Positions 6,500-27,339 of a DNA stretch of 32,000 nt are shown here, one piece after another. Positions within the stretch are counted from its first letter, which is position 1. Every line of letters starts with the position of its first letter. The stretch lies in NCBI RefSeq assembly GCF_000020025.1, contig NC_010628.1:2910001-2942000 (forward strand), in the 5' to 3' direction. This stretch comes from Nostoc punctiforme PCC 73102 (GTDB lineage: Bacteria; Cyanobacteriota; Cyanobacteriia; Cyanobacteriales; Nostocaceae). The position numbers and the translations under genes are program-made. The notes beneath the pieces are model-generated. The model made no database searches. It had not been told where the DNA came from and saw only the letters and a program-made list of their open reading frames with translations.

Positions 6500-9400
6500 G
6501 TGGTCAAACAGCGCCGATATCACTGGTTAAAAGCTGTAATATTTTTCCGCAAACGAAAATTACTAGCTTTGTTGTTGGGGATTTTCTTCTCAATCTCTGT
6601 AGTTTTACTCTGGCAGAGACTTTCAATTCAGACTCCAGGGTTATTAAAACCAGTAGTATTGATTACAGGGTTATTGGTTGTCACGCTGACATTATCAATC
6701 TGTTTTGCCCTGGCGATAAAAGTAAATAATCAGCAAATAGCACTCATAAATCAGGATCTAACTCATAGGATTTTAGAGCAGAAACAGGTAGAAATTACCC
6801 TCCGCGCCAGCGAAAATCGTCTGCGCCAGTTACTGGAAACTGTCAAAGTCATCCCTTGGGAATTAGACTTGAAAACTTGGCGATTTATTTACGTTGGGCC
6901 ACAAGCGGTAGATTTGTTAAATTATGCGATCGCAGACTGGTACGAAGAAAACTTTTGGATCAATCATCTGCATCCGCATGATAAAGAAAAGTCTGTTCGT
7001 TTTCGTCAAGAAGCAACTGCTAGATGTGAGAATCACGAATTAGAATATCGGATGTTAGCAGCCGATGGGCGAGTTGTTTGGCTACGAGACGTTGTTAGCG
7101 TAGTTGAGGAAGCAGGAACTCTTACTACGCTGAGGGGGTTTATGTTTGACATTACTGATTTAAAGCAGGTTGAAGAAACCTTGAGACTCAGAGAGAGGGC
7201 ACTTGCTGCTACCAGTAATGGAATTATTATTGCCGATGCCAGACTTCCCTATAATCCGATTATTTACGTCAACTGCGCTTTTGAGAAAATAACAGGCTAC
7301 ACTGCTGCTGATGTGATTGGGCAAAACTGTCGATTTTTGCAACGCACAGATAGCCAGCAACCAGCACTCAATGAACTGCGTTCATCTCTTCAAGCTGGAA
7401 CAAGTTGCAAAGTTATTCTCCGTAACTATAGTAAAGATGGTGTCTTGTTTTGGAATGAGTTGTGTATTTCTCCTATTCATGACGAAAATGGCAAATTAAG
7501 CCACTTTATTGGAATTCAGACAGATATTAGCCAGCGCAAGCAAGCCGAAGCCAGTCTGCGTCGGCAAGCCCTCACTTTTGAAAACATGCATGATGGCGTA
7601 ATTATCACAGATTTAGGCGGAAATATTATTGACTGGAATCCTGCTGCCCAAAGCATGTTTGGCTATACCAAAGCCGAGATTTTGGCTAAACATATCAGTA
7701 TTTTGCATCGGCCGGAAGTAGCCGCAACATTAAGCGCCAAAATTCTCGAAAAAATCAACCAGCAAGCACGCTGGTCAGGGGAAATACACTTTCTTTGTAA
7801 AGATGGCAGTCAGGCAATTTGCGAAACAACAGTAGTATCTTTACAGGATGAACAAGGAGAAACTGTTGCCACTGTTGGCATCAATCACGACATTACCGAA
7901 AATAAACGAGCTAAAGAAGCATTGCAACGGCAATTGCATCGCACCCTATTACTTGAACAAATTACTCAAGAAATTCGTCAAAGTCTTGATACCAGCAAAA
8001 TCTTTGAGACGGCTGCTACCCAAATTGGAAAAGCTTTTAAAGCCGATCGCTGTCTAATCCATTCTTACATTAGCGACCCTACACCTCGAATCCCCCTAGT
8101 AGCAGAATATAACACACTCCCCGGTTATTGCTCCATGCTGAAATTGGAAGTTCCCATGACTAACAATCCTCATGCAGAGCAGATGATGGCACAAGAAAGT
8201 GCGATCGCTTCCCCGGATGTATATGCCGATCCTTTACTCCAGGCAGCTGAACCTATCTGCCGAAAAATTGAACTGAAGTCTATGCTGTCAATCCGCACCT
8301 CCTATCAAGGAGAACCCAATGGTGCGATCGGATTACATCAGTGCAGCTATTTTCGCCAGTGGACACCAGACGAAATCGAATTACTAGAAGCAGTGGCGGC
8401 TCAACTGGGTATTGCTCTCGCACAGGCTCAGTTACTGGAACAAGAAACCCACCGACGGGAAGAACTTACCTTGAAAAACTTTGCCTTGGAGCAGGCAAAA
8501 CGTCAGGCTGAAGCCGCAAATCGGGCAAAAAGTGAGTTTTTGGCAATGATGAGCCACGAAATTCGGACTCCAATGAATGCTGTTATTGGCATGACCGATC
8601 TCCTGCTGGATACTGACCTCACCCCGCAACAGCAAGACTTTGTAGAAACAGTTCGCAGTAGCGGAGATGCTTTGCTCACCATCATCAACGACATTCTAGA
8701 TTTCTCCAAAATTGAGTCGGGAAAGCTGGAGTTAGAAGAACAGCCTTTTGATTTGAGAGCTTGTGTAGAACAGGCTATTTCTCTATTAGCCCCGAAAGCT
8801 GCCCAAAAAAATATCGAACTAGTTTACCTAATCCAACCGCAAGTTCCAACTCAGATCGTTGGCGATATGACACGTCTGCGCCAAGTCTTAATGAATCTCC
8901 TCAACAACGCCATTAAGTTTACTGAACGCGGAGAAGTGGTACTCTCTGTTGAACTGGGGGCTGGGGATTCAGTCAAGCAGGGGGAAAATTCCTCTCCTCT
9001 GCACCCTTCCCTCGTTCGGCTACGCCCTTCTCTACGAGAAGCTGCGCCCACGACTACGCTCAGGACAAGCTCACGGCAAGCCCGCCCCTCTGCCTCTTCC
9101 GAGTCCCCAATCCAAATTCAATTTGCCATCAAAGATACAGGTATTGGCATTACACCAGAGAAGATAGAGCGGTTATTTCATCCTTTCACTCAGGCTGATG
9201 TCTCCATGACTCGACGATATGGCGGTACAGGGCTAGGGCTAGTAATTAGCAAGCGGCTTAGTAAGATGATGGGAGGAACTCTTTGGGTGGAGAGCCAAGG
9301 GATTGTTGGTGGCAATCCTAGTCCTAGATGGAAAAGTAGAAAATCATTATCATCTCCTTACTCTTCCCAAGGTTCAACATTCTACTTCACCATTACTGCC

Positions 9401-10711
9401 CAAGTGCCTGCTGTACCAGAAGCTGAATTTAGTAATTCGCCGATGCAGCTTCAGGGAAAGCGCCTGTTGATTGTGGACGATAATCTGACTAACTGTCAAA
9501 TTATCAGCTTGCAAGCAGAGTCTTGGGAAATGGAAACTTATGCTGCCAAATCTGCTAAAGAAGCGTTAGCTCAACTTGCTCAGGGAATACAGTTTGATAT
9601 TGCCATTTTAGATATGGAAATGCCAGCAATGGATGGTATAACCCTAGCTCGTCAAATCCGCAGGCAATCTGGTTGTCAAAATCTACCTTTAGTGATTCTT
9701 ACTTCTTTAGGTAGAGAAGAAACATTCTCTGACTTTGGTGATGTCGAGTTTGCTGCCTCTTTGAGTAAACCGATCAAACAGTCTCAACTCTACGATGTTA
9801 TAACCCGTGTTTTAGGAAATCAGCCCAGCGAAGCGAGTATTACTGATTTTCCCTTGGTTGATCGGCATTTGACCCATCCACTGCCACTACGGATTCTTTT
9901 GGCAGAAGATACGATTGTCAATCAAAAAGTTGCCTTACTGATGCTACAGAAAATAGGTTATTCAGCTGATGTCGTAACTAATGGGGTAGAAGTACTCAAG
10001 GCTTTGCAAAAACAGCCTTATGACCTAGTGTTGATGGATGTCCACATGCCCGAAATGGATGGGTTAGAAACAGCTCGAAGAATCTGTCAAGAATGGAAAG
10101 TCGGTTTTCGTCCCCATATCATTGCGATAACTGCCAATGCAATGCGAGGCGATCGCGAAGTCTGTCTTGCTGCTGGTATGGATGACTACATTAGCAAACC
10201 GATTCAGCTTCAAAAGTTAGCTCAGGCACTCAGCAAATGCCCACGCCAAAGAAGTCTTGAAGTCACTCCCATAGTCAAACAAGATCGAGTGAGGTACTTA
10301 GAATTGCAACCTTTGCAAAATATTTTCCAAGAAGGGCAAAACCAGACATTAAAAAGTGACAAAATTGATGCCAAAATTCTCCAATCCTTACGGGATATAG
10401 TCAGAGGCGATCGTGTTGTATTTGCTGAACTAATTAAGTGTTATCTTACAGAAACACTGAGACTGGTACAAGATATTAGCACTGCGATCGCAACTCGGGA
10501 TGCCCAGACTATATGGAAAGCAGCCCATCAACTTAAGTCTAGCAGTGGTTCAATTGGAGCGATCGCTTTAGCACAGCTTTGCAAGGTTTTAGAAGCACAG
10601 GGACGGAGCAGTGAATTAGAAAACACCATAGAATTACTCCCGCAGTTATACCAGGAATATGAACAAGTTAAAACTGCCTTAGAAAAAGAACTTGCGAAGG
10701 AAACACCATGA
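6500..10711 (+). CDS. Membrane-anchored multi-sensor hybrid histidine kinase: 2 TM - PAS - LOV - PAS - GAF - HisKA - HATPase_c - REC - REC - HPt
   Basis: 1403-aa ORF with a GTG start. Hydrophobic N-terminus; LOV motif GQNCRFLQ; H-box [16 protein letters not shown]; N-box [12 protein letters not shown]; G-boxes DTGIGI and GGTGLGL. Two receiver domains (LIVDDN...[11 protein letters not shown]...SKP and LLAEDT...[11 protein letters not shown]...SKP). C-terminal HPt motif [13 protein letters not shown]. Confidence 0.95.
7202..7531 (+). other. LOV (flavin-binding, blue-light) PAS domain within the hybrid kinase
   Basis: [47 protein letters not shown]...[40 protein letters not shown]. The adduct-forming Cys (codon at 7328-7330) sits in the canonical NCRFLQ motif. 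The flanking N/N/Q flavin-contact positions are conserved as in phototropin LOV2. Confidence 0.8.
8958..9113 (+). mobile_element. In-frame GC-rich small dispersed-repeat insertion inside the HATPase_c domain
   Basis: About 156 bp (52 codons) lie between the N-box strand (VVLSVELG) and the strand preceding the G1 box ([14 protein letters not shown]). It translates to low-complexity [50 protein letters not shown]. The ends are imperfectly inverted (GGGGATTCAG / CCGAGTCCCC). It shares exact 15-mer and 10-mer matches with intergenic repeats at 1117-1131 and 13103-13112. Confidence 0.55.
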
Positions 10712-11676
10712 CAGCTACTGCTCAAGAAAGCCAATCTTTAGTTCTAATTGTTGATGATGAGCCTTTTATCCGCATGATACTTCGGCATTTCTTGGAGCGG
10801 GAAGGCTATAAAATAGCGGAAGCTCAAAATGGCAGAGAGGCTTTAACTGCTTTTAACCAACTGCACCCTGACATAATACTTCTTGATGCCATCATGCCGG
10901 ATATGGATGGGTTCGAGTGTTGCACTCACTTAGAGCTTCTTGATTGCAGCAAGCACACTCCAGTTTTAATGATTACAGGACTTGAGGATCAAGAGTCAGT
11001 TGACCGGGCATTTGCAGTGGGAGCAATGGACTATATTACCAAACCGATTCACTGGCCAGTTTTACGACAACGGGTAAAACGCTTGATTGAGCAATCTCAG
11101 TTACAACAAAAACTGGAAGCCGTTAATTTGGAATTGCAGCGATTAGCTACTATTGATGGATTAACTCAAATAGCTAACCGTCGACGCTTTGAAGAGTATC
11201 TTAACCAAGAGTGGCAGCGCCTAAAACGGGATAAACGGCCTCTTTCCCTGATTCTTTGCGATGTTGATTTCTTCAAATTATATAACGATACTTATGGGCA
11301 TCGAGTAGGCGATCGCTGTCTTCAAGAAATTGCTAAGGCTATCAAAGATATTATTAAACGTCCCGGAGATTTAGTTGCCCGTTATGGTGGAGAAGAATTT
11401 GCTGTGATTTTACCTAACACAGACACCGAAGGGGCGACTCATGTTGCCAAGAAAATTTGCCATACTGTCCGAAAATTGGCAATACCTCATGAAAATTCCG
11501 AAGTTAGTCCTTATGTAACCATTAGTGCTGGGTTTACGACAGAAATTCCTCAGTCAGATTCTGACTTGGAAGAAATGATTGCCGCAGCAGATCGGGCATT
11601 GTATCAAGCAAAGGCAGCAGGACGCGATCGCTTTGTGCAAGATATTTTACTACCCAAAAGTAAAAATGAGTGGTAA
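10708..11676 (+). CDS. Response regulator with receiver plus GGDEF diguanylate cyclase domains
   Basis: 322-aa ORF. Its ATG overlaps the upstream stop (ATGA). REC motifs LIVDDEP...[11 protein letters not shown]...TKP. Coiled linker. GGDEF domain with an intact GGEEF (11386-11400) and an RxxD I-site (RPGD) five residues upstream. Confidence 0.95.
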
Positions 11677-13001: not shown

Positions 13002-13045
13002 AACAAATTAATTCATTCTGTTAGCGGTAGCGGGGCGTTTAGCCC

Positions 13046-13139
13046 ATTCTGACTCCTGATCGAAAAAGCGGATAACGCAGCGTAAAGCCTGCGGCACAGC
13101 GTCTCGTAGAGAGCGTCGCATCTTGATTCTGACTTCTGA
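13046..13139. repeat. GC-rich ~66-bp dispersed-repeat core flanked by a 14-bp near-perfect direct repeat
   Basis: ATTCTGACTCCTGA (13046-13059) and ATTCTGACTTCTGA (13126-13139) bracket tcgaaaaagcggataacgcagcgtaaagcctgcggcacagcgtctcgtagagagcgtcgcatctt. Confidence 0.5.
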
Positions 13140-13646
13140 ATTCTTCTTCAACTAAATTTTTGAGTGAATTAATTCCTTATAAAGTCAAAGTCTTATGTTG
13201 CTTTAAATTAGTTAGAAGAATCGCTAAACAATTACATGAACTTTTATATGGGAAATAGCCTATAATCTTACTGAAATACTCATCATAAATCTGATAAAAG
13301 GAAGTGATAGCAAAGAACACAAAGCCTTTCCACCAAGGATTACATTACTGAATTACATAGGATATTCATAAAGGGTTTAAAACATTTATTCACACAAATA
13401 AATAAGATACAAAAGGTAAATAATTCCGTATAGTTTCGGTGTAAGTCTTTTGATAAATTTACTGCTTCTACGTTCTCTTACGCAAGTTTAATTTTTATTC
13501 TTGAATAAAAATTCACTATTTTCTGACCTTTGTAAAGTTAATATCAAATTATTGGAATAATTGATCTACTCCTTATGGCAGTTGCGGTAGTAAGCGCTAT
13601 CTGAACAATCTTTAGCTTGAGCAAGACAAACTAAGGAGGTTGATTC

Positions 13647-14110
13647 ATGTTGTGTATTGAAGAATTGATCGACTTAGATTTGTTTGAACAGCTCTCTAAA
13701 GAGCAATTAGAGTAGATTTGCGATCGCGCTCAAACGGATGAACTAGGCACCGGAGAAGTATTGACACATAAGGGAGAACCGGGATACGGCTTATTTAGCC
13801 TAGTCAAAGGTAATAGACTTCTTGCAGAAGTGGGGGAAAGGGGAAGGGTTAAGGGGGAAAGGGAAAATTCCATCCCTTTCCCCCTTAACCCTTTAACCTT
13901 TCTCCGACATCTTGCAAAAGGAACTTTTGCAAGATGTCTAATGAATCTTAACCGCTAGACAGAAAGAGTTGAAATTCCTATTGGGCAACATGAAGCCCCA
14001 TCATTTTTTAGTGAAATTCCAGTACTTACCGATGGTTTCTGTGACAGTGCAGGCATTGGCAAATTGTCAATTCTATGAAGTTAAGCAGATATTACATCGT
14101 CAAAGTTAAG
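13647..14110 (+). pseudogene. Decayed cyclic-nucleotide-binding-domain gene (nonsense mutation, MITE insertion and frameshift)
   Basis: A strong SD (taaggagg) precedes the ATG. Reads MLCIEELIDLDLFEQLSKEQLE*ICDRAQTDELGTGEVLTHKGEPGYGLFSLVKG. It is then interrupted by the 13814-13940 element. It resumes as RVEIPIGQHEAPSFFSEIPVLTD, then in another frame as VSVTVQALANCQFYEV, matching the cNMP-binding pattern FFGE..LL....R.A.V.A. Confidence 0.6.
13814..13940. mobile_element. MITE-like element with ~17-bp terminal inverted repeats, inserted in the cNMP-binding pseudogene
   Basis: The left end TAGACTTCTTGCAGAAG matches the reverse complement of the right end, TAGACATCTTGCAAAAG. The internal palindrome is ggggaagggttaaggggg...cccccttaaccctt. 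It generates the spurious ORF 13761..13958. Confidence 0.6.
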
Positions 14111-14703
14111 GATGCGTAGTTTAGCTATGTAGGCATCGCTCTCTTATGTGAGGGGTAAGCGATCGCAGTGTATCCCAAGATTGGCGAAATCACTGCTGAT
14201 GTGGGTCATTGGAGTGGGGAGCTGGCGGTAAATCTGGCGCGAAGATTCGGTTTGGCAGATCCTTTTGGTATAAAAGCATCTGCTGAGGGAAGACTTAAAA
14301 CAAGACCCTCTACTGATGGGATTAAAATTACAAATTATCGAGGATGAAAGTATTACCCCACAATACCTTTACGATTTTGACACTTCATATACTGGCTGTA
14401 GTTCTGCAACGGCTAAATACAAAAGCTGAACCTACCAAAACATTTAGATTCTCTATGTAGCCAAATTTATGGACAAAACCATGATTATTCACAGCTTCCC
14501 CGCACAACAGAAAAGCTTAAAACGCACTTATATAAGCATTTTTAAGCATTTTTTCAAAATTTCTAATTTTAATAAAGACAAATTAAAACTCCTTTGACAC
14601 AATAGTACAGAAACAGAGAGGTATCTAATATTCTCATCTCTCTGTATATATGATTAAGCAACTAGACTGATATAAAAAGAACCAAGCCACTTATCAAAAT
14701 ACG

Positions 14704-15954
14704 ATGAACCCCAACAACCCTTTGCAGACAATGCAAACAAGTTTCCATACGGCTTTAGGTGCTGTTAGTGAATTTACGGCCCTACTTCAAGAGCCCCAAA
14801 AACTCACGAATTACTTTACCAGAATGCAACAAAAGCCGGAGCAATTGTTCCAAGATTTAGCAGTAAAAGGCAAAAATATGGAACAAGATATGAATAGTTT
14901 TTTCAAAAATTACTTTTGCGGAGGTGGTAACAAATCACCATATCCCAAATATATAGAACGGGCAGATGGACAGGCTTTTAACCAACCTTATGAAATCAAA
15001 GGGACAAAAATGTATGGCTTTGTCGTTGAGGGTTCAATGGCGAAGTTGCAAGAGGTCTGTGATAAATATCTCAACGATCCCAATAACGGAGAGATTGAAT
15101 ATCGCCCAGCAATGAACTATCTTGTCCTGACGTTCAACAAGATAGATTCTTTAAGTTCCATCTATCCTCCCGACTATGACAAAGGAACTGTGCATGAAGA
15201 AGAAGCCATCTTTTGGATGTTAACAGTGGTAGGTAAAAGAGTCGGGCCTTTATTCATAGCCGAACGCCTAGCTTGGTTTATGCCTTACGTGTACGTGAAT
15301 AATTCTCCCATCCTAGTTTCTGGTAGAGAAGTCTATGGCTTCTTTAAAGAACTTGGCCTATTTCAGATCCCTGAATTAAATCAAGAACCGGATTTATTTA
15401 CTGTAGATACCTTAGTATTTAAAGAATTTTCTCCTACAAGCCAATCTATAGATGCTCGCCTACTGGAAGTTCAACGCATCAATAAAGGAGAGAAACATCC
15501 AGCTATCAAGACATGGGACACCTTTGAAGAAGCAGCAAGAGCGATCGCTAGTTTATTATTTGACAATAACGAAATTCTGATTCCTGGCTTACAGTTACCC
15601 TTCAATTTCCTCGAATATCTCCTAGAAAAAATCGTCCCACTCGTTACCCTCAAACAAATTCGCGACGTAGAAAACAGCAAAAAAGCCTGCTATCAAGCAC
15701 TGATTGAATCCCCCATGCAACTACAAACCTTCTATGGCGGAAAACTCTTTGGCTTCAATGGTTTTGGCGATCAATTTCAACTAAAAATCAATAATTTCGC
15801 TAGCCAACCCATCGTCCAAGACTTAGGACTACACAAAGGCTATCCCGCAGGTAGCCAATCAGTAAATATCCCCGTAAAGCTTGGTTTCGTGCTGCACTTC
15901 GACTTCACCCTCAAAGATGGGAAAGCCGTTTGGCAAGCACCACAGAAAAATTAG
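14704..15954 (+). CDS. Acetoacetate-decarboxylase-fold (ADC-like) family protein with an N-terminal ~75-aa helical extension
   Basis: 416-aa ORF with an ATG start. The segment MPYVYVNNSPILVSGREVYGFFKELG parallels the clostridial ADC active-site segment as I recall it (MMYLDNEPAIAVGRELSAYPKKLG), and the Schiff-base lysine position is retained. The upstream PYEIKGTKMYGFVVEGSMAKLQEVC parallels PYKFHNREYFNIVYRTDMDALRKVV. Assignment is from memory of the motif, not from a search. Confidence 0.6.
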   Translation: MNPNNPLQTMQTSFHTALGAVSEFTALLQEPQKLTNYFTRMQQKPEQLFQDLAVKGKNMEQDMNSFFKNYFCGGGNKSPYPKYIERADGQAFNQPYEIKGTKMYGFVVEGSMAKLQEVCDKYLNDPNNGEIEYRPAMNYLVLTFNKIDSLSSIYPPDYDKGTVHEEEAIFWMLTVVGKRVGPLFIAERLAWFMPYVYVNNSPILVSGREVYGFFKELGLFQIPELNQEPDLFTVDTLVFKEFSPTSQSIDARLLEVQRINKGEKHPAIKTWDTFEEAARAIASLLFDNNEILIPGLQLPFNFLEYLLEKIVPLVTLKQIRDVENSKKACYQALIESPMQLQTFYGGKLFGFNGFGDQFQLKINNFASQPIVQDLGLHKGYPAGSQSVNIPVKLGFVLHFDFTLKDGKAVWQAPQKN

Positions 15955-16110
15955 CATTGGGCGAATATGATTTCTTACTGCACAAGCAAAATCTATCTAA
16001 TGCAAAATCAAGGGTTTACTAACTAACCTGCGGAGACAGGTTTTGCCTGTGTAGTCGAGACTTCTAGTCGCCCAAACTTTCACAACTAATGCCTATCAGG
16101 AAAAACAAAT

Positions 16111-18420
16111 ATGTCTGAAACCTTTAAGCCCAAAAAAATCGCTATTTTAGGCGGTGGAATATCATCCCTAACCACTGCATACGAATTAACCAGTCAACCA
16201 GGATGGGATAGTCTCTACGATATTACTATTTATCAAACAGGTTGGCGTTTGGGTGGTAAATGTGCAACTGGACGCAACATTAAACCCCATACACCCAATT
16301 CTGAACCAGACTATCGCATCGAAGAACACGGACTGCACATTTTTTTTGGATTCTACGAAAATGCTTTTCGTCTACTCAAGCAATGCTACGACGAACTAGG
16401 TGGTAACGGGCCTTTCAGCACCATAGAAGATGCATTCAAACCTCACAGTCTCATCGTCTTAGAAGAATACATCAATAAAAATTGGAAAACTCTGCCTTTT
16501 GATTTTCCTACCAATTCTCTAGTTCCTTGGGAAGGTGGCGGCATTTCTTCTCTTTGGGAACATATCTGCACAACCATTGAATTCGTCATTCAGACTTACG
16601 CAGTAATTGATGATTATAGTCAGTCAAAGTCTACCAAAAGTTCTTCAACATCTGTTGCCAAACAAATAGCATTAGGCAAGGAGGTAATGGAATTTTTATC
16701 AGATAGTAGTCTCTTACAGTTTCCTAGCCAGTTGATTCAGTTACTTCTCCAACAACCCATGTTTTGGGGAGGATGGCTGAACAATATCAACGAATTTATT
16801 AGTAATATCCTTCAAAACCTAGATTTGACTTCTGAAAAAGTTTTCTTAAATCTTGCCTACAACCTAGTTAAATCACTGCCCAAAAATACCAAAACTCACA
16901 GACGCGAACATCATAAGTTAATTCTTAAGCTCATAGACCGTTTTAAAGAACAGCTGATTCGTCAGATTGAATCTAAGGTTGGGCAAAACCCTGATATGTT
17001 TTGGCGTTTAACACTCATTGATTTAGCATTAGCAAACATCCGGGGTTTGTTTGTGGATGAGATAATTGATTTTCGTTCCCTAGATAGTTTAGATGAGTAC
17101 AACTACAGAGATTGGCTACTAAAACACGGAGCTAGAGAATCAAGCGTTAAATCAGCATTTATTCGCGTCTTATACGATTTAGTTTATGGTTTTCCAGAAG
17201 GTAATACCGATAAACCTCAACTAGCAGCCGGAACAGCTATTCGTGTCCTCACAACTATCTTGTTCAAATACAATGGCGCAATCATGTGGAAAATGCAATC
17301 AGGGATGGCAGAGGTAGTCATCACTCCACTATATGAAGTGCTAAAGCGTCGTGGTGTGAAATTCGAGTTCTTCCATGTTATCAAGCAATTGCATCTGGAT
17401 AACAATCAGCAATCAATTGCCAGTATCACTTTAGCTCGTCAAGTAAATTTAAAAAACCCAAAGCAAGAATATCAACCGCTTATCGCAGTTAAAGACATTC
17501 GTTGTTGGCCTAGCGAACCTCTCTACGATCAGATTGTCGATGAAGAAGCCCAAAAACTTCAAGATCAAGAAATTAACCTTGAGTCATATTGGACACCTTG
17601 GCAGAATGTAGACAAAATTACCCTCACCAAAGGTAATGATTTTGATATTGTGTTGCTGGGAATTTCTATAGCCGCCTTACCCTCCATTTGCAGTGAATTG
17701 CTCCAAGCTAAAAAAAATCCGGCTCACCAAAAATGGAGTGAGATGTTAACGCAAGTCAAAACAGTAACTACTCAAGGCGGACAAATATGGCTTAAGCCTA
17801 CCTTATCGCAATTAGGATGGCAACAATCTAGCCCTGTGCTAGGAGCTTACGTTGAACCACTTGATGTCTATGCAGATATGAGTGAGTTAGTACAACGAGA
17901 AAATTGGCCTTCCGATCATTATCCTTACAATGCAGCTTATTTCACTGGTGTAATTGCAGATCCAGGGATTCCTCCCCACACAGCTTATGATTTCCCAGCT
18001 AAAGCCCAAAAAAAAGTAGAGCAAGAGGCAATTAACTTCCTCAACAATCACATCGGACAGCTTTGGCCTAATGCTACTCAGCCAAAAAATCCCCAAGGTT
18101 TGAATTGGGATTTATTAATAGATTTTCAAAACCGTCAGGGAGTAGAACGCTTTAAAGCTCAATACTGGCGAGTTAACATTAACCCATCAGAACGCTATGT
18201 ACTATCTGTACCTGGAAGTAGCAAGCATCGACTCAAAACTGATGAATCTGGGTTTGATAACCTTTATCTAGCTGGCGACTGGATTAACAACGGTTACAAT
18301 TCCGGTTGTGTGGAAGCGACAGTAATGTCTGCAATGCAAGCAACACGAGCTATTCTAAATCAATGCTTCCATATAAAATACACCAAAGAAATTATTGGTG
18401 AGTGGGATTCTTGGTTATAA
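16111..18420 (+). CDS. Large FAD-dependent oxidoreductase of the amine-oxidase / phytoene-desaturase-like superfamily
   Basis: 769-aa ORF. The N-terminal dinucleotide fold KKIAILGGGISSLTTAYEL...IYQTGWRLGGK and the PDS-like EHGLHIFFGFYEN are present. The C-terminal LYLAGDWINNGYNSGCVEATVMSAMQATRAIL is the closing FAD motif of this family. Confidence 0.85.
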   Translation: MSETFKPKKIAILGGGISSLTTAYELTSQPGWDSLYDITIYQTGWRLGGKCATGRNIKPHTPNSEPDYRIEEHGLHIFFGFYENAFRLLKQCYDELGGNGPFSTIEDAFKPHSLIVLEEYINKNWKTLPFDFPTNSLVPWEGGGISSLWEHICTTIEFVIQTYAVIDDYSQSKSTKSSSTSVAKQIALGKEVMEFLSDSSLLQFPSQLIQLLLQQPMFWGGWLNNINEFISNILQNLDLTSEKVFLNLAYNLVKSLPKNTKTHRREHHKLILKLIDRFKEQLIRQIESKVGQNPDMFWRLTLIDLALANIRGLFVDEIIDFRSLDSLDEYNYRDWLLKHGARESSVKSAFIRVLYDLVYGFPEGNTDKPQLAAGTAIRVLTTILFKYNGAIMWKMQSGMAEVVITPLYEVLKRRGVKFEFFHVIKQLHLDNNQQSIASITLARQVNLKNPKQEYQPLIAVKDIRCWPSEPLYDQIVDEEAQKLQDQEINLESYWTPWQNVDKITLTKGNDFDIVLLGISIAALPSICSELLQAKKNPAHQKWSEMLTQVKTVTTQGGQIWLKPTLSQLGWQQSSPVLGAYVEPLDVYADMSELVQRENWPSDHYPYNAAYFTGVIADPGIPPHTAYDFPAKAQKKVEQEAINFLNNHIGQLWPNATQPKNPQGLNWDLLIDFQNRQGVERFKAQYWRVNINPSERYVLSVPGSSKHRLKTDESGFDNLYLAGDWINNGYNSGCVEATVMSAMQATRAILNQCFHIKYTKEIIGEWDSWL

Positions 18421-18608
18421 TGAGGTGCATTTTGACAAACTCAACAAAAAGTAGCATTATTTAGGTTGTTAAAACCTATACTATTTGATAAATCGATACA
18501 TTTTTAATGTTTGTTCCATAACAGACTTTAAAAATGTATTTATTATTCTCTGAATAATAGGCTCGTTAGTTGGAACATTGAAATTTTATTAAAATATTAG
18601 TATTACCA

Positions 18609-21600
18609 ATGATTGTATTATCGAATTACCAAATTATAGAATTAATTGATGAGGGAATAAAAACTGCTGTTTATCGAGCCAGGAGAAATCAAGATGGTCA
18701 AATAGTAGTTATTAAACTTTTAAAAACAGAATACCCTGAGCTAAGAGATATAGCAGCGTTAAAACATGAATATGAGCTAATCAAAAATTTAGATATCCTA
18801 GGAGTTATTCAAGCTCATAGTTTAGAAAAATACAACAATGGTTTTGCTATTGTTTTAGAAAATTTTGATGGAATTTCTCTCTACAAAAGTATTCAGACAG
18901 AAAAAATAGAGTTACAAAATTTTCTTAATGTAGGCATTCAAATTACTCAAGCTTTAGGTGAATTACACCAAAATTATATTATCCATAAAGATATTAAACC
19001 ACAAAACATTATTGTTAATTTAGTTACCTATCAAGTTAAAATAATTGATTTTTCTATCTCATCATTGCTTTTTCAAGAGAAACCCAAACTCAGCAATCCT
19101 GATTTGCTTGAAGGAACTCTAGCCTATATGTCTCCAGAGCAAACGGGAAGAATGAATCGGTCAGTTGATTACCGTACAGACTTTTATTCGTTGGGTGTAA
19201 CTTTTTATGAAATGCTCACAGGTCAGTTACCATTTTCAGCAACCGATCCAATGGAGTTAGTTCATTGTCATATTGCTAAACAACCCATAACAGTAGAACA
19301 ATTAAATCCACAAATCCCTCAAGTAATTTCTGCAATTATTATGAAGCTACTCAGCAAAACTGCTGAGGGAAGATATCAAAGTGCTTTTGGGATTAAAGCG
19401 GATTTAGAAACCTGTCTCGATCAATTAGAGAAAACTAACTCTATAACCAACTTTTCTATTGGCCAGCAGGATCATTCTAGCCAACTGCAAATTCCCGAAA
19501 AGTTGTATGGACGAGAAGCAGAAATAGATATTTTAATGAATGCTTTTGAAAAAGTTAATCAAGGAAATAAAGAATTACTATTGGTTGCAGGTTACTCAGG
19601 TATTGGTAAATCAGCATTAGTTAACGAAATTCATAAACCTGTTATCAAAAACAGAGGTTATTTTATTGCTGGTAAATTTGAGCAATTTCAGCGCAATATT
19701 CCTTATGCTTCACTGATTCAAGCATTTCAAGAGTTAATGCAGCAATTACTTACAGAAAGTGAAGCACAGTTATCTACTTGGAAAGAAAGACTTTTAGAGG
19801 CTTTAGTTCCGAATGCTCAAATTATTATTGATGTCATTCCTGAACTAGAACTGATTATTGGTAAACAAACAGAAGTACCACAACTAGCTTCAGCAGAAGC
19901 ACAAAATCGCTTTAACTTGGTTTTTCAAAAGTTTATCAATGTGTTTGCTCAAAAAGAACATCCATTAGTTGTATTTTTAGATGATTTACAATGGGCAGAT
20001 TTAGCTTCATTAAAATTAATTCAGTTATTGGCTACAGATGCTGAAATTAAATATTTATTGCTCATAGGAGCTTATCGAGATAATGAAGTTGATCCTAGCC
20101 ATTCTTTAATGCTAGTTTTGCAGGAAATTGAAAAAAATAGTAGCCCTGTCCAGATTGTTCACTGTCAAAATCTGAAAATTACTCATGTTTGTCAATTAGT
20201 TAGCGACACTCTAAAATCTAGTTTAGAGAACTCCAAAGAATTAGCAAAATTGATTTTCAATAAAACTGGTGGTAATCCATTCTTTATAAATCAATTACTC
20301 AAGTTCATTCATCAAGAAAATTTACTTTTATTTGATTTTATCACTGGTCAATGGCAATGGGACATTCAGCACATTCAGACGCTAGGAATTACTGAGAATG
20401 TTGTTGAATTAATGATAGGTAAAATTCAAAAGCTCAAAGACACTACACAGAATATTTTAAAAATAGCTGCGTGTATTGGCAATCGATTTAATTTAAATAT
20501 ACTTTCTTGTGTTAACGAAAAATCTCATAATGACACAGCTTTAGAGATTTGGGAAGCATTACAAGCTGGTTTAATTATACCTTTAAGCGATAATTATAAA
20601 CTACCACATCTATTAGATTATGTTGATATTTTTGTAATTGATTATAAATTTCTTCACGATCGGGTGCAACAAGCGGCTTATGCTTTGATACCCAATGAGC
20701 AGAAAAAGGAGATTCACTTAAATATTGGTAGACTGCTATTAAAGAATATAGACGAAAGTTTACTAGAAGAAATAATCTTCGATATTGTTAACCAATTAAA
20801 TATCGGTATTGAACTAATTATTTCTCCAGAAGAAAGATATAAATTAGCTAAGTTAAATCTTATTTCTGGACGTAAAGCTAAGGATTCTGCTGCTTACGAA
20901 TCTGCTGTAAAGTTTTTGAGGCAAGGTCTAAGTTTACTTGAAGTTGATTGTTGGCAAACCCATTATGAATTAACTCTTAACCTTCATGTAGAAACCGTAG
21001 AAGCGGACTATTTAAATACAAATTTTGAGCAAGCAGAATCATTATTTATCAGTGTTATAACCAATAGTAAAACTATTCTTGATGCTGTTAAAGTATATGA
21101 GAAGAAAATTCAGTTTTATGTTGCTCAAAATCAAATGCGAGAAGCATTAGATTTAGATTTGCAGGTGCTAGAGATGCTGGGAGTTTCTTTATCTCAAACT
21201 CCACCAGCAGAGTTAAAAGTTGAAGAATTAGTCAATTTGCCAGAAATGACTGATGCTCATAAGCTAGCTGCTATGAGGATACTAATGACAGCTATGCCTC
21301 CCGCTTATTTAGCCGATCCTGCACTTTTACCACTGATTGCTTTTACGATGGTTGATTTATGTGTGCAGTATGGCAATTCATCTTTTGCAGCTTATGCCTA
21401 TGGTTTTTATGGGCTAATTTTATGTGGGCCTCTTAAGGAGATTGAATCAGGTTATAGATTTGGTAAATTATCTTTGCAGATTTTAGATAAATTCAACGCT
21501 AGAGAAATCAAATCTAAAGTGTATGCACTATTTAATATTTTTGTTAGACATTGGAAAGAACATATTAAAGCAACTATAGAACCTTTACAAGATGGTGTTC

Positions 21601-23951
21601 AAAGTGGTTTAGATACAGGGGATATTGAGTATGTGGGTTACAATGGATTATTAGTTTGTTGGCATCCTTTTTGGGTTGGAGAAAACTTAAATACTGTTGA
21701 ACAAAGACTAGAACAATATATTAATTTATCACATAAGATAAAGCAAGAGCATTTTACTATTTGTTTGCTTATCTTAAAACAAATGGTAATCGAATTAGTT
21801 CAAGGGCCGGATAATAAATCTTACTTAGAAGGTGATAGTTTTAATGAATCAGTAATGCAGAGGATGGCAGGAAATATTACAGCTATTTTTTATACTTATC
21901 TTGCCAAAAGTATTTTAAGTTATTTCTTTAAAGATTATAGCCAGTCTGTTAAAAATGCTCAATTAGCACAACAGTATGAAGTTGCAGTTGGTGGGACTGT
22001 TTATCTATGTGAATATAAGTTCTATTATTCTCTGGCATCGTTAGCCTTCTTGTTAAAGACTACTTCTGAAACAGATATAAAAGCTGCTATGGAGATAGTA
22101 GAAGAAAATCAAAAACAATTAAAAGATTGGGCAGATCATGCACCTGTAAATAATCAGCACAAATACGATCTAGTAGAGGCAGAAAAAGCACGAGTTTTAG
22201 GGCAAGTGTTAGTAGCAATGGAATACTACGATCGCGCAATTCAAGGGGCTCATAATTTTGGATATATTCATGAAGAAGCGCTAGCTTATGAATGTGCAGC
22301 AGAATTTTATCTCAGTCTAGGAAGAAATGAATTTACCTCACTATACATGACAAAGGCACATTATGGTTATCGCCGTTGGGGAGCAAGTGCTAAATTTAAG
22401 GATCTGGAATTAAAATACCCAGAATTAATTGCTAAGGTTTCCGCTCACTCTCAAGTAGGCTTTACAAGTAATACTATTACTACTTCTACTGCTAATGAAA
22501 AGTCAAGCGGACTAGATTTCATTACAGTTATTAAAGCATCGCAAGCTTTATCAGAAGTAATTTTATTGGAAAATTTGTTAGAAAAGCTCATGAGAATTGT
22601 AATTGAGAATGCTGGCGCTCAAACTGGTATTTTACTTTTACAGAAAGGAGGGAAATTATTTATTGAAGCTCAAGCTGATGTCTACCAAAATGATTTAATT
22701 GTTGGTCAATCAATACCAGTTGAAAATATTCAAAATTTGCCTATATCTGTAATAAATTATGCCACAAGAACAAAAAAAGATGTAGTTTTATCTGATGCCA
22801 GTAATGAAGGAAGTTTTACGATAGACCCGTACATTGTTGAGCATCAAATAAAATCTCTTATGTGTACTTGTATTGTGAATCAAGGCAAACTTATTGGGTT
22901 ACTTTATTTAGAAAATAATTTAACAGTGGGAGCATTTACTTCGGATAGAATACAAGTCTTAAAAATACTATTTTCGCAAGCAGCTATTTCCTTAGAAAAT
23001 GCCCGACTCTACGCCAACTTAGAAGACAAAATTGAGGAAAGAACGAGGGAGCTAAATGAAAAAAATGTGCGATTAAATCAAACACTGCATGAATTAAAAT
23101 TAACTCAAACTCAGCTTATTCAAACAGAGAAAATGTCAAGCTTGGGGCAAATGATTGCTGGTATTGCTCATGAAATTAATAACCCTGTAAGCTTTATTCA
23201 TGGCAACTTAGAGCACATTAATAATTACACGCAGGATTTACTTAGTTTAATTAATATTTATCAAAATCTCTATCCCAATGTAGCACCAGAGATTGAAGAC
23301 TTTTTAGAGAATATAGATGTTGATTTTATTAAAGAAGATATCCCTAAAACTTTATCTTCGATGAAAATTGGTACGCAACGCATTCGAGAAATTGTGCTGA
23401 CATTGCGTAATTTTTCTCGGTTAGATGAGGCTGACATGAAACCTGTTAATATTCATGAGGGAATTGAGAGTACGTTACTAATTTTGCAAAGCCGTCTCCA
23501 AGCCAAACCAGGTAAGCCTGCAATTGAGATTATCAAAAATTATAGTGAGTTACCAAACGTGGAATGTTATGCTGGGCAACTCAATCAGGTATTTATGAAT
23601 ATTCTGAATAATGCGATTGATTCTTTAGAAAGGTCAAATCAGGGAAAAACAGCAGAGGAAATTAAGAGTGATTATGATGCGATCGCTATTCGTACCCAAG
23701 TAGTCAATCCTGATTTAGTCGCAATTTTCATTAGGGATAATGGGGTTGGTATGAGTGATAGTGTCAGACAAAAAATATTTGATCCTTTTTTCACTACTAA
23801 ACCTGTGGGACAAGGTACTGGTTTAGGATTATCAATCACTTATCAAATTGTAGTAGACAAACATCACGGGACAATAGAGTGCATTTCTGCACCTGGGCAG
23901 GGTGCAGAGTTTATTATTCAAATTCCCTGTCGGCAAAAGCGGGTAATCTAG
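18609..23951 (+). CDS. HstK-type multi-kinase: Ser/Thr kinase - AAA(STAND-like) ATPase - TPR/helical repeats - GAF - histidine kinase
   Basis: 1780-aa ORF. Kinase motifs VVIKLLK, IHKDIKPQNIIV and SPEQTGR. Walker A GYSGIGKSALVNE and Walker B VVFLDDLQWAD. A GAF region around residues 1290-1440. H-box GIAHEINNPVSFIHGNL. N/G boxes NILNNAIDS, DNGVGM and GTGLGL. Confidence 0.93.
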   Translation: MIVLSNYQIIELIDEGIKTAVYRARRNQDGQIVVIKLLKTEYPELRDIAALKHEYELIKNLDILGVIQAHSLEKYNNGFAIVLENFDGISLYKSIQTEKIELQNFLNVGIQITQALGELHQNYIIHKDIKPQNIIVNLVTYQVKIIDFSISSLLFQEKPKLSNPDLLEGTLAYMSPEQTGRMNRSVDYRTDFYSLGVTFYEMLTGQLPFSATDPMELVHCHIAKQPITVEQLNPQIPQVISAIIMKLLSKTAEGRYQSAFGIKADLETCLDQLEKTNSITNFSIGQQDHSSQLQIPEKLYGREAEIDILMNAFEKVNQGNKELLLVAGYSGIGKSALVNEIHKPVIKNRGYFIAGKFEQFQRNIPYASLIQAFQELMQQLLTESEAQLSTWKERLLEALVPNAQIIIDVIPELELIIGKQTEVPQLASAEAQNRFNLVFQKFINVFAQKEHPLVVFLDDLQWADLASLKLIQLLATDAEIKYLLLIGAYRDNEVDPSHSLMLVLQEIEKNSSPVQIVHCQNLKITHVCQLVSDTLKSSLENSKELAKLIFNKTGGNPFFINQLLKFIHQENLLLFDFITGQWQWDIQHIQTLGITENVVELMIGKIQKLKDTTQNILKIAACIGNRFNLNILSCVNEKSHNDTALEIWEALQAGLIIPLSDNYKLPHLLDYVDIFVIDYKFLHDRVQQAAYALIPNEQKKEIHLNIGRLLLKNIDESLLEEIIFDIVNQLNIGIELIISPEERYKLAKLNLISGRKAKDSAAYESAVKFLRQGLSLLEVDCWQTHYELTLNLHVETVEADYLNTNFEQAESLFISVITNSKTILDAVKVYEKKIQFYVAQNQMREALDLDLQVLEMLGVSLSQTPPAELKVEELVNLPEMTDAHKLAAMRILMTAMPPAYLADPALLPLIAFTMVDLCVQYGNSSFAAYAYGFYGLILCGPLKEIESGYRFGKLSLQILDKFNAREIKSKVYALFNIFVRHWKEHIKATIEPLQDGVQSGLDTGDIEYVGYNGLLVCWHPFWVGENLNTVEQRLEQYINLSHKIKQEHFTICLLILKQMVIELVQGPDNKSYLEGDSFNESVMQRMAGNITAIFYTYLAKSILSYFFKDYSQSVKNAQLAQQYEVAVGGTVYLCEYKFYYSLASLAFLLKTTSETDIKAAMEIVEENQKQLKDWADHAPVNNQHKYDLVEAEKARVLGQVLVAMEYYDRAIQGAHNFGYIHEEALAYECAAEFYLSLGRNEFTSLYMTKAHYGYRRWGASAKFKDLELKYPELIAKVSAHSQVGFTSNTITTSTANEKSSGLDFITVIKASQALSEVILLENLLEKLMRIVIENAGAQTGILLLQKGGKLFIEAQADVYQNDLIVGQSIPVENIQNLPISVINYATRTKKDVVLSDASNEGSFTIDPYIVEHQIKSLMCTCIVNQGKLIGLLYLENNLTVGAFTSDRIQVLKILFSQAAISLENARLYANLEDKIEERTRELNEKNVRLNQTLHELKLTQTQLIQTEKMSSLGQMIAGIAHEINNPVSFIHGNLEHINNYTQDLLSLINIYQNLYPNVAPEIEDFLENIDVDFIKEDIPKTLSSMKIGTQRIREIVLTLRNFSRLDEADMKPVNIHEGIESTLLILQSRLQAKPGKPAIEIIKNYSELPNVECYAGQLNQVFMNILNNAIDSLERSNQGKTAEEIKSDYDAIAIRTQVVNPDLVAIFIRDNGVGMSDSVRQKIFDPFFTTKPVGQGTGLGLSITYQIVVDKHHGTIECISAPGQGAEFIIQIPCRQKRVI

Positions 23952-23980
23952 CATAAGATAACGCTCTAATTTACACCCAC

Positions 23981-26658: not shown

Positions 26659-27339
26659 TCAAAGTGTCAGTGTTTCCCAATCTAAATCTGACGCTATTTG
26701 AGCAAGTTTATCTAAATCAGTCAGATTATCTAAATAGGGTAAGCAGCCTAAAACTGGCGTGTTAGTGAGCGATCTAATCAATTGCTGTGGTGTCCAATCG
26801 GCTATTTCTGCATCTGTTCGAGGTTGTACGCAGTTCAAAACAATGCCTTTAAGATTGATGCGCGATTGTCTAGCTAGTGCGACGTTTGCCACTGCTTGAG
26901 CGATCGCACCCAATCTCACAGGCACTACCAATACCGTTGGTAAACGCCATTCTCCCGCTAAATCAGCTACGGTTAACTCGTCAGTTACTGGCGAACCTAA
27001 ACCTCCCAAGGCTTCTACAAGTACAAAATCACGTTGCGATCGCAATTTAGAAAAAGCTTGCCACACAAGAGCTAAATCAACTTGGCGATTTTCTCGTGCG
27101 GCGGCGATGGGAGGGGCTAAAGGTGCTTCAAAGTATAGCGGTGTAATTTCCTCTGAGGATTGTTCGAGCGCAAATAGCTTTTGATACCACTCGCGATCGC
27201 CAATCCCCGATTGAATCGGTTTCATGATTCCCCAGCTACGTTGTGGGTAATATTTTTGCCAATAGGCTGCTAAGGCTGTTGTTAAAACAGTTTTGCCAGC
27301 TTCGGTATCAGTTCCAGTAATCAGTAGTGTGTTTAACAT
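26659..27339 (-). CDS. bioD: Dethiobiotin synthase
   Basis: 226-aa ORF. The N-terminal LLITGTDTEAGKTVLTTAL P-loop and the EALGGLGSPV motif are typical of BioD. Confidence 0.92.
   Translation of the reverse strand: MLNTLLITGTDTEAGKTVLTTALAAYWQKYYPQRSWGIMKPIQSGIGDREWYQKLFALEQSSEEITPLYFEAPLAPPIAAARENRQVDLALVWQAFSKLRSQRDFVLVEALGGLGSPVTDELTVADLAGEWRLPTVLVVPVRLGAIAQAVANVALARQSRINLKGIVLNCVQPRTDAEIADWTPQQLIRSLTNTPVLGCLPYLDNLTDLDKLAQIASDLDWETLTL

Follow-up and report, generated by a model that had tools for sequence, protein, structure and literature searches.

We identified a conserved three-gene cassette in a 32,000-nucleotide (nt) stretch of the Nostoc punctiforme PCC 73102 genome (contig NC_010628.1, positions 2,910,001 to 2,942,000; hereafter the window). 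Gene 1 encodes a protein of the acetoacetate decarboxylase (ADC) superfamily, gene 2 a flavin adenine dinucleotide (FAD) enzyme resembling phytoene desaturase (PDS), and gene 3 an HstK-type signalling protein that contains a STAND NTPase module (Table 1). We are highly confident that the enzymes encoded by genes 1 and 2 are coupled and that gene 3 belongs to the cassette. The best overall explanation, to which we assign a probability of about 0.5, is that genes 1 and 2 encode a physically coupled bi-enzyme that acts on an isoprenoid lipid and is tied to STAND signalling. In this explanation, the kind of substrate, the reaction catalysed and the part played in signalling are inferred from the observations below. 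An earlier note on this DNA, made from the letters of the sequence, had described genes 1 and 2 as a same-strand pair with a 156-bp gap; the coordinates of the open reading frames (ORFs), their strand and the gap are all exactly as it gave them.

We scanned one genome per species with a profile of the gene 1 family and mapped the resulting 80 loci (L numbers) with custom hidden Markov models. A flavoprotein is encoded next to, or fused to, the ADC-like protein in 54 of 55 cyanobacterial loci, and the lone cyanobacterial locus without one is at a contig end. The same arrangement is found in 19 of 25 loci from other phyla (Chloroflexota, Planctomycetota, Acidobacteriota, Verrucomicrobiota, Bacteroidota and Proteobacteria), where two flavoprotein paralogs often surround the ADC-like gene. 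Fusions occur in both orders, with the ADC-like domain at the N-terminus (proteins P0084, P0093, P0094, P0120, P0113, P0154 and P0151) or at the C-terminus (P0132 and P0035) of the flavoprotein, and the two-domain proteins are ~1020-1110 amino acids (aa) long. That the genes are nearly always adjacent, and that fusions exist in either order, is strong evidence for joint action of the two proteins. The earlier note had proposed a functional link between the genes and had suggested looking for the pair in cyanobacterial and other genomes; the near-universal adjacency and the fusions support that link more strongly than the evidence it had offered.

The ADC-like family comprises 2715 clusters at 50% identity (E<=1e-3), and 27 of 145 family representatives contain a flavoprotein domain. 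The nearest relatives of genes 1 and 2 are Nostoc and Desmonostoc proteins that are 96-99% identical. Public records name relatives ‘hypothetical protein’, ‘acetoacetate decarboxylase family protein’ or ‘NAD(P)-binding protein’, and the flavoproteins carry a COG3349-type name at JGI. The ADC-like and PDS-like bi-enzyme is widespread and built from known folds, and we found no functional annotation for the ADC-like family in public records.

Gene 3 belongs to the same unit. By definition (PMC2176072), HstK proteins begin with a Ser/Thr kinase, end with a His kinase and carry one or more GAF domains. Gene 3 has all of these, as well as a long helical region between its AAA_16 STAND NTPase and its GAF domain. 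Of the 55 cyanobacterial loci, 51-53 have a ~1800-aa protein with the organization Pkinase-AAA_16-GAF-HisKA-HATPase_c directly beside the pair, including loci of Spirulina and Limnothrix in which the pair is fused. When the window is compared with ~35 Nostocales genomes, conservation extends from 14567-14705 to 23926-23964, and the flanks differ in all but the four closest genomes. The earlier note had taken the HstK-type gene as the downstream boundary of a two-gene cassette; this was mistaken, as the gene lies inside the synteny block and is its third conserved member.

Proteins that adjoin the pair or its paralog clusters keep the Pkinase, AAA_16 and GAF domains and vary in their output, with a nucleotide cyclase in L010 and a PP2C phosphatase in L092 as alternatives to a His kinase. 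Outside cyanobacteria, a signalling neighbour is present in 9-10 of 25 loci. Its organization is cyclase-AAA_16-TPR in Chloroflexia and Bacteroidota, Pkinase-AAA_16 in Planctomycetota, Pkinase-AAA_16-GAF-cyclase in Verrucomicrobiota and Pkinase-PD40 in Acidobacteriota. Gene 3 has the same Ser/Thr kinase, GAF and His kinase architecture as the HstK/cbSTKIII dual kinases (PMC2176072), to which it adds the AAA_16 STAND module. It differs from these kinases, and from STAND ATPases such as MalT, in being co-inherited with an enzyme pair and in having equivalents with cyclase or PP2C output that occupy the same position.

A STAND NTPase next to two enzymes could also indicate a conflict, defence or cell-death system, with the enzyme pair as an effector that makes a toxic lipid or destroys an essential one under kinase/NTPase control. 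The AAA_16 STAND partners, a TIR-TPR protein beside the sphingomonad fusions, a CHAT/CAP protein beside a paralogous cluster and a distribution enriched in filamentous or otherwise complex bacteria would fit such a system. PADLOC, however, gave no match to gene 1, matched only the Rossmann region of gene 2 (E 0.0027) and recognized only a generic kinase domain in gene 3. The block is moreover kept across Nostocales species representatives to ~75% nucleotide identity, no mobile-element genes were seen inside it, and the enzymes show high conservation in place of the rapid diversification of a conflict system. We consider a defence role very improbable.

The enzymes that recur beside the flavoprotein-containing pair all belong to isoprenoid families (SQS-like, CruF-like, CrtC-like and sterol-type Rieske). 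In Microcoleus and Tychonema (L007, L055, L056, L057, L059 and L061), an SQS_PSY gene lies between the ADC-like gene and the gene for a ~714-aa flavoprotein; in Microcoleus, these three and an HstK-type kinase gene form a four-gene cluster. The best full-length match of the SQS_PSY partner is squalene synthase, with a score under the cutoff. A paralogous cluster composed of SQS_PSY, flavoprotein and HstK-type kinase genes occurs in L007, L009/L044 (Anabaena cylindrica UHCC 0172) and L094, and a paralog pair of SQS_PSY and ‘phytoene desaturase (COG3349)’ has already been listed as an unassigned terpene cluster in Subsection V cyanobacteria (PMC4558948).

Further combinations involve other isoprenoid-type enzymes. 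L010/L011 encode a Rieske/VanA_C oxygenase, whose best match is bacterial sterol 4-beta-methyl monooxygenase, followed by a 727-aa flavoprotein of a third subfamily and a Pkinase-AAA_16-GAF-nucleotide-cyclase protein. In sphingomonads (L090:6912-12806 and L091), a CruF-like membrane hydratase related to carotenoid 1,2-hydratase precedes an ADC::flavoprotein fusion, which is followed by the TIR-TPR protein. P0183 and P0265 (L095:8001-12289, L096 and L097) are fusions, in both orders, of a CrtC/AttH hydratase-like double lipocalin to an ADC-like domain; one such fusion is followed by a flavoprotein gene (768 aa) whose start codon overlaps the stop codon of the fusion gene. The cyanobacterial flavoproteins form three subfamilies, each with a different partner, and the paralogs are ~45% identical. 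Among the gene neighbours whose families we examined, none was for amino-acid metabolism or a non-ribosomal peptide synthetase (NRPS), and no aminotransferase gene recurred beside the pair. These partner families and the PDS-like fold of gene 2 favour an isoprenoid or polyene lipid over an amino-acid or 2-oxo-acid substrate, and on balance we consider an isoprenoid substrate class slightly more likely than not.

Gene 1 has the ADC fold that the earlier note had read from its core. An AlphaFold2 model based on 34 relatives has a mean predicted local distance difference test score (pLDDT) of 86.4. In a Foldseek search of the PDB with this model, the 23 best matches are without exception ADC-superfamily proteins (E 1.9e-13 to 1.8e-8, template-modelling (TM) score on the target 0.64-0.77) and include C. 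violaceum, Legionella and C. acetobutylicum ADC as well as MppR, Sbi00515 and Swit_4259; the first match outside the superfamily has E=0.007 and TM 0.1. The true ADCs of C. acetobutylicum (3BH2) and C. violaceum (3BGT) are the best structures (E 1.9e-13, TM on the target 0.77), with the GPY and GRExxxxPK motifs aligned.

At the level of sequence, the Pfam ADC model (Pfam accession PF06314) matches gene 1 at aa 190-224 only (E=0.011, 15.7 bits, under the 29.8-bit cutoff); this sole stretch that the model recognises contains YVYVNNSPILVSGREVYGFFKELG at aa 195-218. The NCBIfam ADC model NF002614 gives 12.2 bits against a 150-bit cutoff, and a sequence search of the PDB with gene 1 and its family profile yielded only a 28-residue match to the ADC motif. 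Some relatives of gene 1 do pass the Pfam cutoff (P0183, 43.5 bits; P0168, 38.6 bits). We also aligned C. acetobutylicum ADC to a profile of 45 diverse gene 1 relatives with hhalign (E 4.6e-5, probability 68.6%); the ADC sequence used agrees with PDB entry 3BH2 at 243 of 244 positions.

Residue conservation was counted in 159 members of the gene 1 family, whose mutual identity is only ~30%. K215, the aligned counterpart of the Schiff-base Lys in the ADCs of C. acetobutylicum (K115) and C. violaceum (K116), is present in 159/159 members, as is G212. R208 (156/159) and E209 (155/159) are nearly as constant, followed by K317 (150/159) and E165 (139/159). K215 is held in the GREVYGFFK motif of the core. 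A second near-invariant motif, L316-K317-Q318-F-R320-D321...A328-C-Y330-Q331, starts with LKQ(F/I)RD at aa 316-321. For K215, such conservation at a mutual identity of only ~30% is the pattern typical of a catalytic residue.

True ADCs differ from gene 1 at other positions. The equivalents of Arg29, Glu61 and Lys116 are all lost (T101, L140 and E216 in gene 1), so gene 1 is not a plain acetoacetate decarboxylase, and decarboxylation of acetoacetate is not expected of it. The earlier note had read an ADC fold, a retained Schiff-base Lys and a neighbouring Lys replaced by Glu, and had seen in the last an argument against a plain decarboxylase; its points on the fold and the two residues all hold. 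Gene 1 groups functionally with the non-decarboxylase branch of the ADC superfamily. MppR (enduracididine pathway), Sbi00515 (pyruvate aldolase-dehydratase) and Swit_4259 share its beta-cone fold (Foldseek E 1e-11 to 1e-8), and gene 1 is like them in carrying the Lys in a G-R-E-x-x-G-x-x-K motif, in keeping the Glu76 equivalent and in lacking Arg29, Glu61 and Lys116. It differs from them in its sequence (identity only 10-14%), its longer core (~335 aa versus ~250-265) with an extra helical segment (~aa 262-311), its LKQFRD...ACYQ motif, its obligate and often fused PDS-like partner and its isoprenoid context.

Some of these observations would also suit a gene 1 product that is not an enzyme, namely a lipid-binding or chaperone subunit whose hydrophobic beta-cone pocket delivers substrate to the flavoprotein. 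The Pfam ADC score lies under the cutoff, the three ADC residues are lost, and relatives are fused to lipocalin-like CrtC/AttH domains. Against this, K215 is invariant and the GRE motif and the Glu76 equivalent are conserved across a family of such low mutual identity, which makes a purely binding role the least probable of the explanations that we weighed.

The extra helical N-terminal region that the earlier note had pointed out is real and lineage-specific. The AlphaFold2 model predicts helices at aa 6-29, 31-43 and 45-70 (pLDDT ~80). The extension is restricted to one cyanobacterial subfamily and absent from the fusions, and most gene 1 relatives are ~320 aa long and align only to aa ~78-414. 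The same note had likened the region to phasin or granule-binding helices. This reading found no support: Pfam and NCBIfam scans of aa 1-75 at E<=1 were empty, without a match to phasin models, and the region showed no homology to anything compared. We also considered a remnant of a fusion linker, or kinship with gene 2 or gene 3, and rejected both, as the comparison revealed no similarity.

Gene 2 matches NAD_binding_8 (Pfam accession PF13450, 42.3 bits versus a cutoff of 21.9) and Amino_oxidase (Pfam accession PF01593, 37.1 versus 19.8). Its AlphaFold2 model (pLDDT 87.6, pTM 0.88) is most similar in the PDB to rice PDS (5mog; Foldseek E 1.8e-16, TM on the target 0.77). L-amino-acid oxidases, monoamine oxidases, LSD1, NicA2 and PPOX form a second tier of matches (~1e-12 to 1e-10, TM ~0.6). 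By sequence, gene 2 and its family profile matched PDB entries only in the N-terminal Rossmann region. The description of gene 2 in the earlier note as an oversized enzyme of the PDS/amine-oxidase type agrees with these results, and its size reflects an insertion of ~240 aa.

Gene 2 shares an FAD Rossmann fold and an amine-oxidase-type architecture with PDS, ZDS, HpnE, CrtU and CruE (COG3349). Its partial NCBIfam matches place it outside the characterized equivalogs (ZDS, 44.9 bits versus a cutoff of 622; HpnE, 43.7 versus 283; PDS, 30.0 versus 569), with scores ~10-20 times under the cutoffs, and it is ~770 aa long compared with ~470 aa for PDS, ZDS and HpnE. A paralog of gene 2 clusters with an SQS/PSY-like gene, much as HpnE does with HpnC and HpnD, whereas the flavoprotein partners found here also include ADC-like, CrtC-like or Rieske proteins, a difference from PDS, ZDS, HpnE, CrtU and CruE. 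The HpnC/HpnD/HpnE and CrtM/CrtN/CrtP modules follow a shared logic, in which a head-to-head prenyl synthase stands beside one or two paralogous flavoproteins, but the proteins described here are equivalogs of none of their members. We know of no ADC-superfamily enzyme in either route.

The COG3349 name and the Rieske neighbour prompted us to consider the flavoprotein as CruE. In the flavoprotein family alignment, Cys is conserved at >=90% only at C92 and C465, and with only two conserved Cys there is no evident cluster of the iron-sulfur type. Given these two Cys, the sterol-type affinity of the Rieske partner and the existence of three subfamilies, we rejected this identity; CruE and CrtU are treated as distant relatives only, a placement made without direct comparison to a CruE sequence.

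The second-tier structural matches of gene 2 bear on a different model, in which gene 2 oxidises a nitrogenous small molecule, as an amine oxidase or L-amino-acid oxidase, to a 2-oxo acid or aldehyde, and gene 1 processes this product by Schiff-base chemistry in the manner of MppR and Sbi00515. The amine- and amino-acid-oxidase matches and the PF01593 score above its cutoff are compatible with it, as are the strong structural matches of gene 1 to MppR, Sbi00515 and Swit_4259 (E ~1e-11 to 1e-8) and the retention in all of these of the Lys and Glu without the decarboxylation-specific residues. Yet PDS is the better structural match of gene 2 by four orders of magnitude in E, with a TM score of 0.77 compared with ~0.6; ZDS, HpnE and PDS are its best family matches; and the recurrent partners are isoprenoid-related rather than of the aminotransferase, NRPS or amino-acid type. 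The 2-oxo-acid pathway with a partner oxidase that the earlier note had proposed is not supported by the same observations, and we regard an amino-acid-oxidase route as distinctly improbable.

For the coupled bi-enzyme on an isoprenoid lipid, we propose the following mechanism. CrtO and CrtP are flavoproteins of the broader group that introduce keto or aldehyde groups. Gene 2, an FAD enzyme in the PDS/ZDS/HpnE neighbourhood, would desaturate or oxidise a lipid of the squalene, phytoene or acyclic carotenoid-end type. K215 of gene 1, with E165 as its partner, may form a Schiff base with an aldehyde or ketone on the product or substrate of the flavoprotein. Gene 1 could then act on C-C or C=C bonds by aldol/retro-aldol, hydration-dehydration or isomerisation chemistry, as Sbi00515 and MppR do. 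The lipid made or removed by the pair might be an input of the STAND kinase, as a ligand of its TPR-like or GAF sensor, or an output under its control.

The idea that the lipid acts as a ligand of the kinase is tentative, and we consider it somewhat unlikely. A fuller version, which we regard as unlikely, has the pair make or destroy a carbonyl lipid of isoprenoid origin as the cognate ligand for the STAND protein beside it, in a phylum-spanning and hitherto unrecognised lipid second-messenger or lipid-status system. If such a system exists, the ADC-like, squalene-synthase-like, Rieske and CrtC-like partners would be interchangeable modules that set signal specificity for the kinase paralogs. 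If gene 1 is a Schiff-base enzyme of the ADC fold whose substrate is a carbonyl derived from an isoprenoid, the chemistry known for this scaffold would be broadened.

Alternatively, the pair could catalyse an ordinary step in lipid or pigment metabolism, such as carotenoid, hopanoid or squalene-derived lipid tailoring, that the kinase merely regulates and in which no signal molecule takes part. The same isoprenoid context, the many non-cyanobacterial loci without a signalling neighbour and the earlier mining of the paralogous SQS_PSY and COG3349 pair as a terpene cluster (PMC4558948) are consistent with this alternative, and so is the effect on a heterocyst glycolipid reported for the HstK-family kinases Pkn44 and Pkn30 (Shi et al. 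2007). However, the STAND association recurs across at least five phyla with different outputs, and kinase and pair form one block in Nostocales, a tighter linkage than is usual between a structural-lipid pathway and its regulator. We consider an ordinary pathway step rather improbable.

Several observations weigh against a bi-enzyme that acts on an isoprenoid lipid and is tied to STAND signalling. First, the putative isoprenoid assignment draws on fold similarity and gene neighbourhood only; the PDS-like fold is also compatible with amine or alcohol oxidation, and most loci, this window included, have no isoprenoid synthase, so that the substrate would come from elsewhere. Second, the hhalign match of gene 1 to ADC is modest and its Pfam ADC score is under the gathering cutoff. 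Third, some ADC-like loci have no flavoprotein (L072, L076, L077, L078 and L086) and may represent a functionally different branch. Finally, about 15 of the 25 non-cyanobacterial loci have no adjacent signalling gene, the kinase gene may be transcribed separately in view of a hairpin and a promoter-like block upstream of it (Table 1), and the position of the kinase beside the pair does not in itself demonstrate a ligand shared by them.

HstK-family kinases are described in PMC2176072 and PMC2853384. The accessible parts of the HstK literature, these two papers among others, make no mention of an upstream enzyme pair, and the accessible literature names no sensory input for the HstK-type dual kinases, which are abundant in filamentous cyanobacteria. 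Our literature search, with the key HstK papers (Phalip 2001, Cheng 2006 and Shi 2007) outside its reach, found no description of an ADC-like plus flavoprotein module. Within the available portions of these sources we found no described equivalent of the cassette. What is new is the consistent genomic link of the bi-enzyme to STAND-type signalling and isoprenoid enzymes. The co-inherited enzyme pair is a concrete candidate for the input or output of one HstK-type kinase, and the paralog clusters suggest the same for others. The SQS-like and flavoprotein clusters flagged by terpene miners (PMC4558948) would also gain context.

Table 1. Features of the cassette in the window and gene 1 residues aligned to C. 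acetobutylicum ADC by hhalign
Feature	Position	Strand	Remarks
Putative leader/promoter region of the cassette, conserved	14567..14703	+	start of synteny in >30 Nostocales genomes
Conserved block upstream of gene 1	~14574-14633	+	AAAGACAAATTAAAACTCCTTTGACACAATAGTACAGAAAC..GGTATCTAATATT; ~60 nt, 70-130 nt before the ATG
Gene 1	14704..15954	+	416 aa, ATG start; ADC-superfamily protein
Gene 1 N-terminal extension, aa 1-78	14704..14937	+	three helices; one cyanobacterial subfamily only
Gene 1 core, aa 79-416	14938..15954	+	ADC-superfamily beta-cone
Gene 1 P95-Y96			P23-Y24 of ADC; kept
Gene 1 T101			R29 of ADC; lost; family mostly V/T/A
Gene 1 L140			E61 of ADC; lost; family mostly V
Gene 1 G161			G72 of ADC; kept
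Gene 1 E165	15196-15198		E76 of ADC; kept (hhalign probability 68.6%)
Gene 1 K215	15346-15348		K115, Schiff-base Lys of ADC; kept
Gene 1 E216			K116 of ADC; lost; family mostly E/Q/S
Gene 1-gene 2 spacer	15955..16110	+	156 bp, poorly conserved
Gene 2	16111..18420	+	769 aa, ATG start; PDS-like FAD enzyme
Gene 2 dinucleotide-binding fold	aa 8-50	+	KKIAILGGGISS; GxGxxG; G14, G15 and G16 near-invariant
Gene 2 helical insertion	~aa 148-386 (16552-17268)	+	~240 aa; AlphaFold2 model
Gene 2 C-terminal amine-oxidase signature	aa 680-749	+	Pfam
Promoter-like block TTGACA-17-CATTAT, conserved	18432..18460	+	consensus match only; such matches not above chance here
AT-rich hairpin, conserved	18496..18548	+	arms 18496-18509 and 18526-18539 plus inner stem; T-rich tail TTATTATTC at 18540-18548
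Gene 3	18609..23951	+	1780 aa; HstK-type signalling protein, third conserved cassette member
Gene 3 domains (Pfam)	Pkinase aa 7-254; AAA_16 298-486; GAF 1320-1462; HisKA 1512-1607; HATPase_c 1657-1775	+	

The hairpin downstream of gene 2 is present in ~33 Nostocaceae loci and has an RNAfold energy of about -18 kcal/mol. Its outer helix is 94% paired in 21 distinct sequences, with UA<->CG and AU<->UA compensations. None of 500 shuffles reached the observed pairing or covariation, and slid registers drop to 33-50% paired. The hairpin may serve as a terminator or attenuator, or it may instead be a palindromic operator. A consensus scan of the two gaps (15955-16110 and 18421-18608) found no terminator-like site on the + strand, and promoter-like consensus matches in both gaps were not above chance. 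For most Nostocales, the alignment is interrupted at the spacer between genes 1 and 2, from 15954 to near 16100.

The conserved block upstream of gene 1 is kept in many Nostocales, including the window and L012, L016, L033, L036, L037 and L003. In L033 and L003 it contains an NtcA-like GTA-N8-TAC sequence; in the window the second half-site is GAG.

The 1.7 kb further upstream (13002-14703) contain no ORF >65 aa and lack conservation, also in comparison with the closest genomes. At 13844-13893, this region holds a perfect 21-nt palindrome (AAGGGTTAAGGGGGAAAGGGA / TCCCTTTCCCCCTTAACCCTT). The earlier note had labelled the region MITE debris (remains of miniature inverted-repeat transposable elements), and the label is plausible because of the palindrome and the lack of both ORFs and conservation. 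An Rfam scan of the whole window gave zero matches.

Gene 3 has a GC content of 0.31-0.36 and is markedly more AT-rich than genes 1 and 2 (~0.40). The VVIK, HKD and DFS motifs are retained in its Ser/Thr kinase domain, whose glycine-rich loop is degenerate. In A. cylindrica, the ADC-like and SQS_PSY modules are arranged back to back and apparently share one kinase. A second gene encoding Ser/Thr kinase, AAA_16, GAF and cyclase domains occurs in the L001 neighbourhood (L001:1-6523) and is preceded by a gene for an 846-aa protein with a faint Phosphoesterase match, a hint that further HstK-like genes may be paired with an upstream enzyme of their own.

The ADC-like loci without a flavoprotein come from Chloroflexota/Anaerolineae and one metagenome-assembled genome labelled Rickettsiales. 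L072, L076 and L086 adjoin paired ABC exporters and a GNAT acetyltransferase, and L072 and L076 also contain a DUF1349 gene.

The flanks of the window contain other signalling genes (6500-11676 and 27339-29114). Their products are a hybrid histidine kinase of 1403 aa with PAS/GAF, receiver and Hpt domains, a receiver-GGDEF protein, and a Ser/Thr kinase of 591 aa. Only in the closest genomes do these genes share synteny with the cassette. In L036 (Anabaena azotica), the spacer between gene 2 and the kinase gene carries a palindromic insertion with G/C runs (L036:13744-14132) similar to the palindrome upstream of gene 1, and both look like small mobile repeats.

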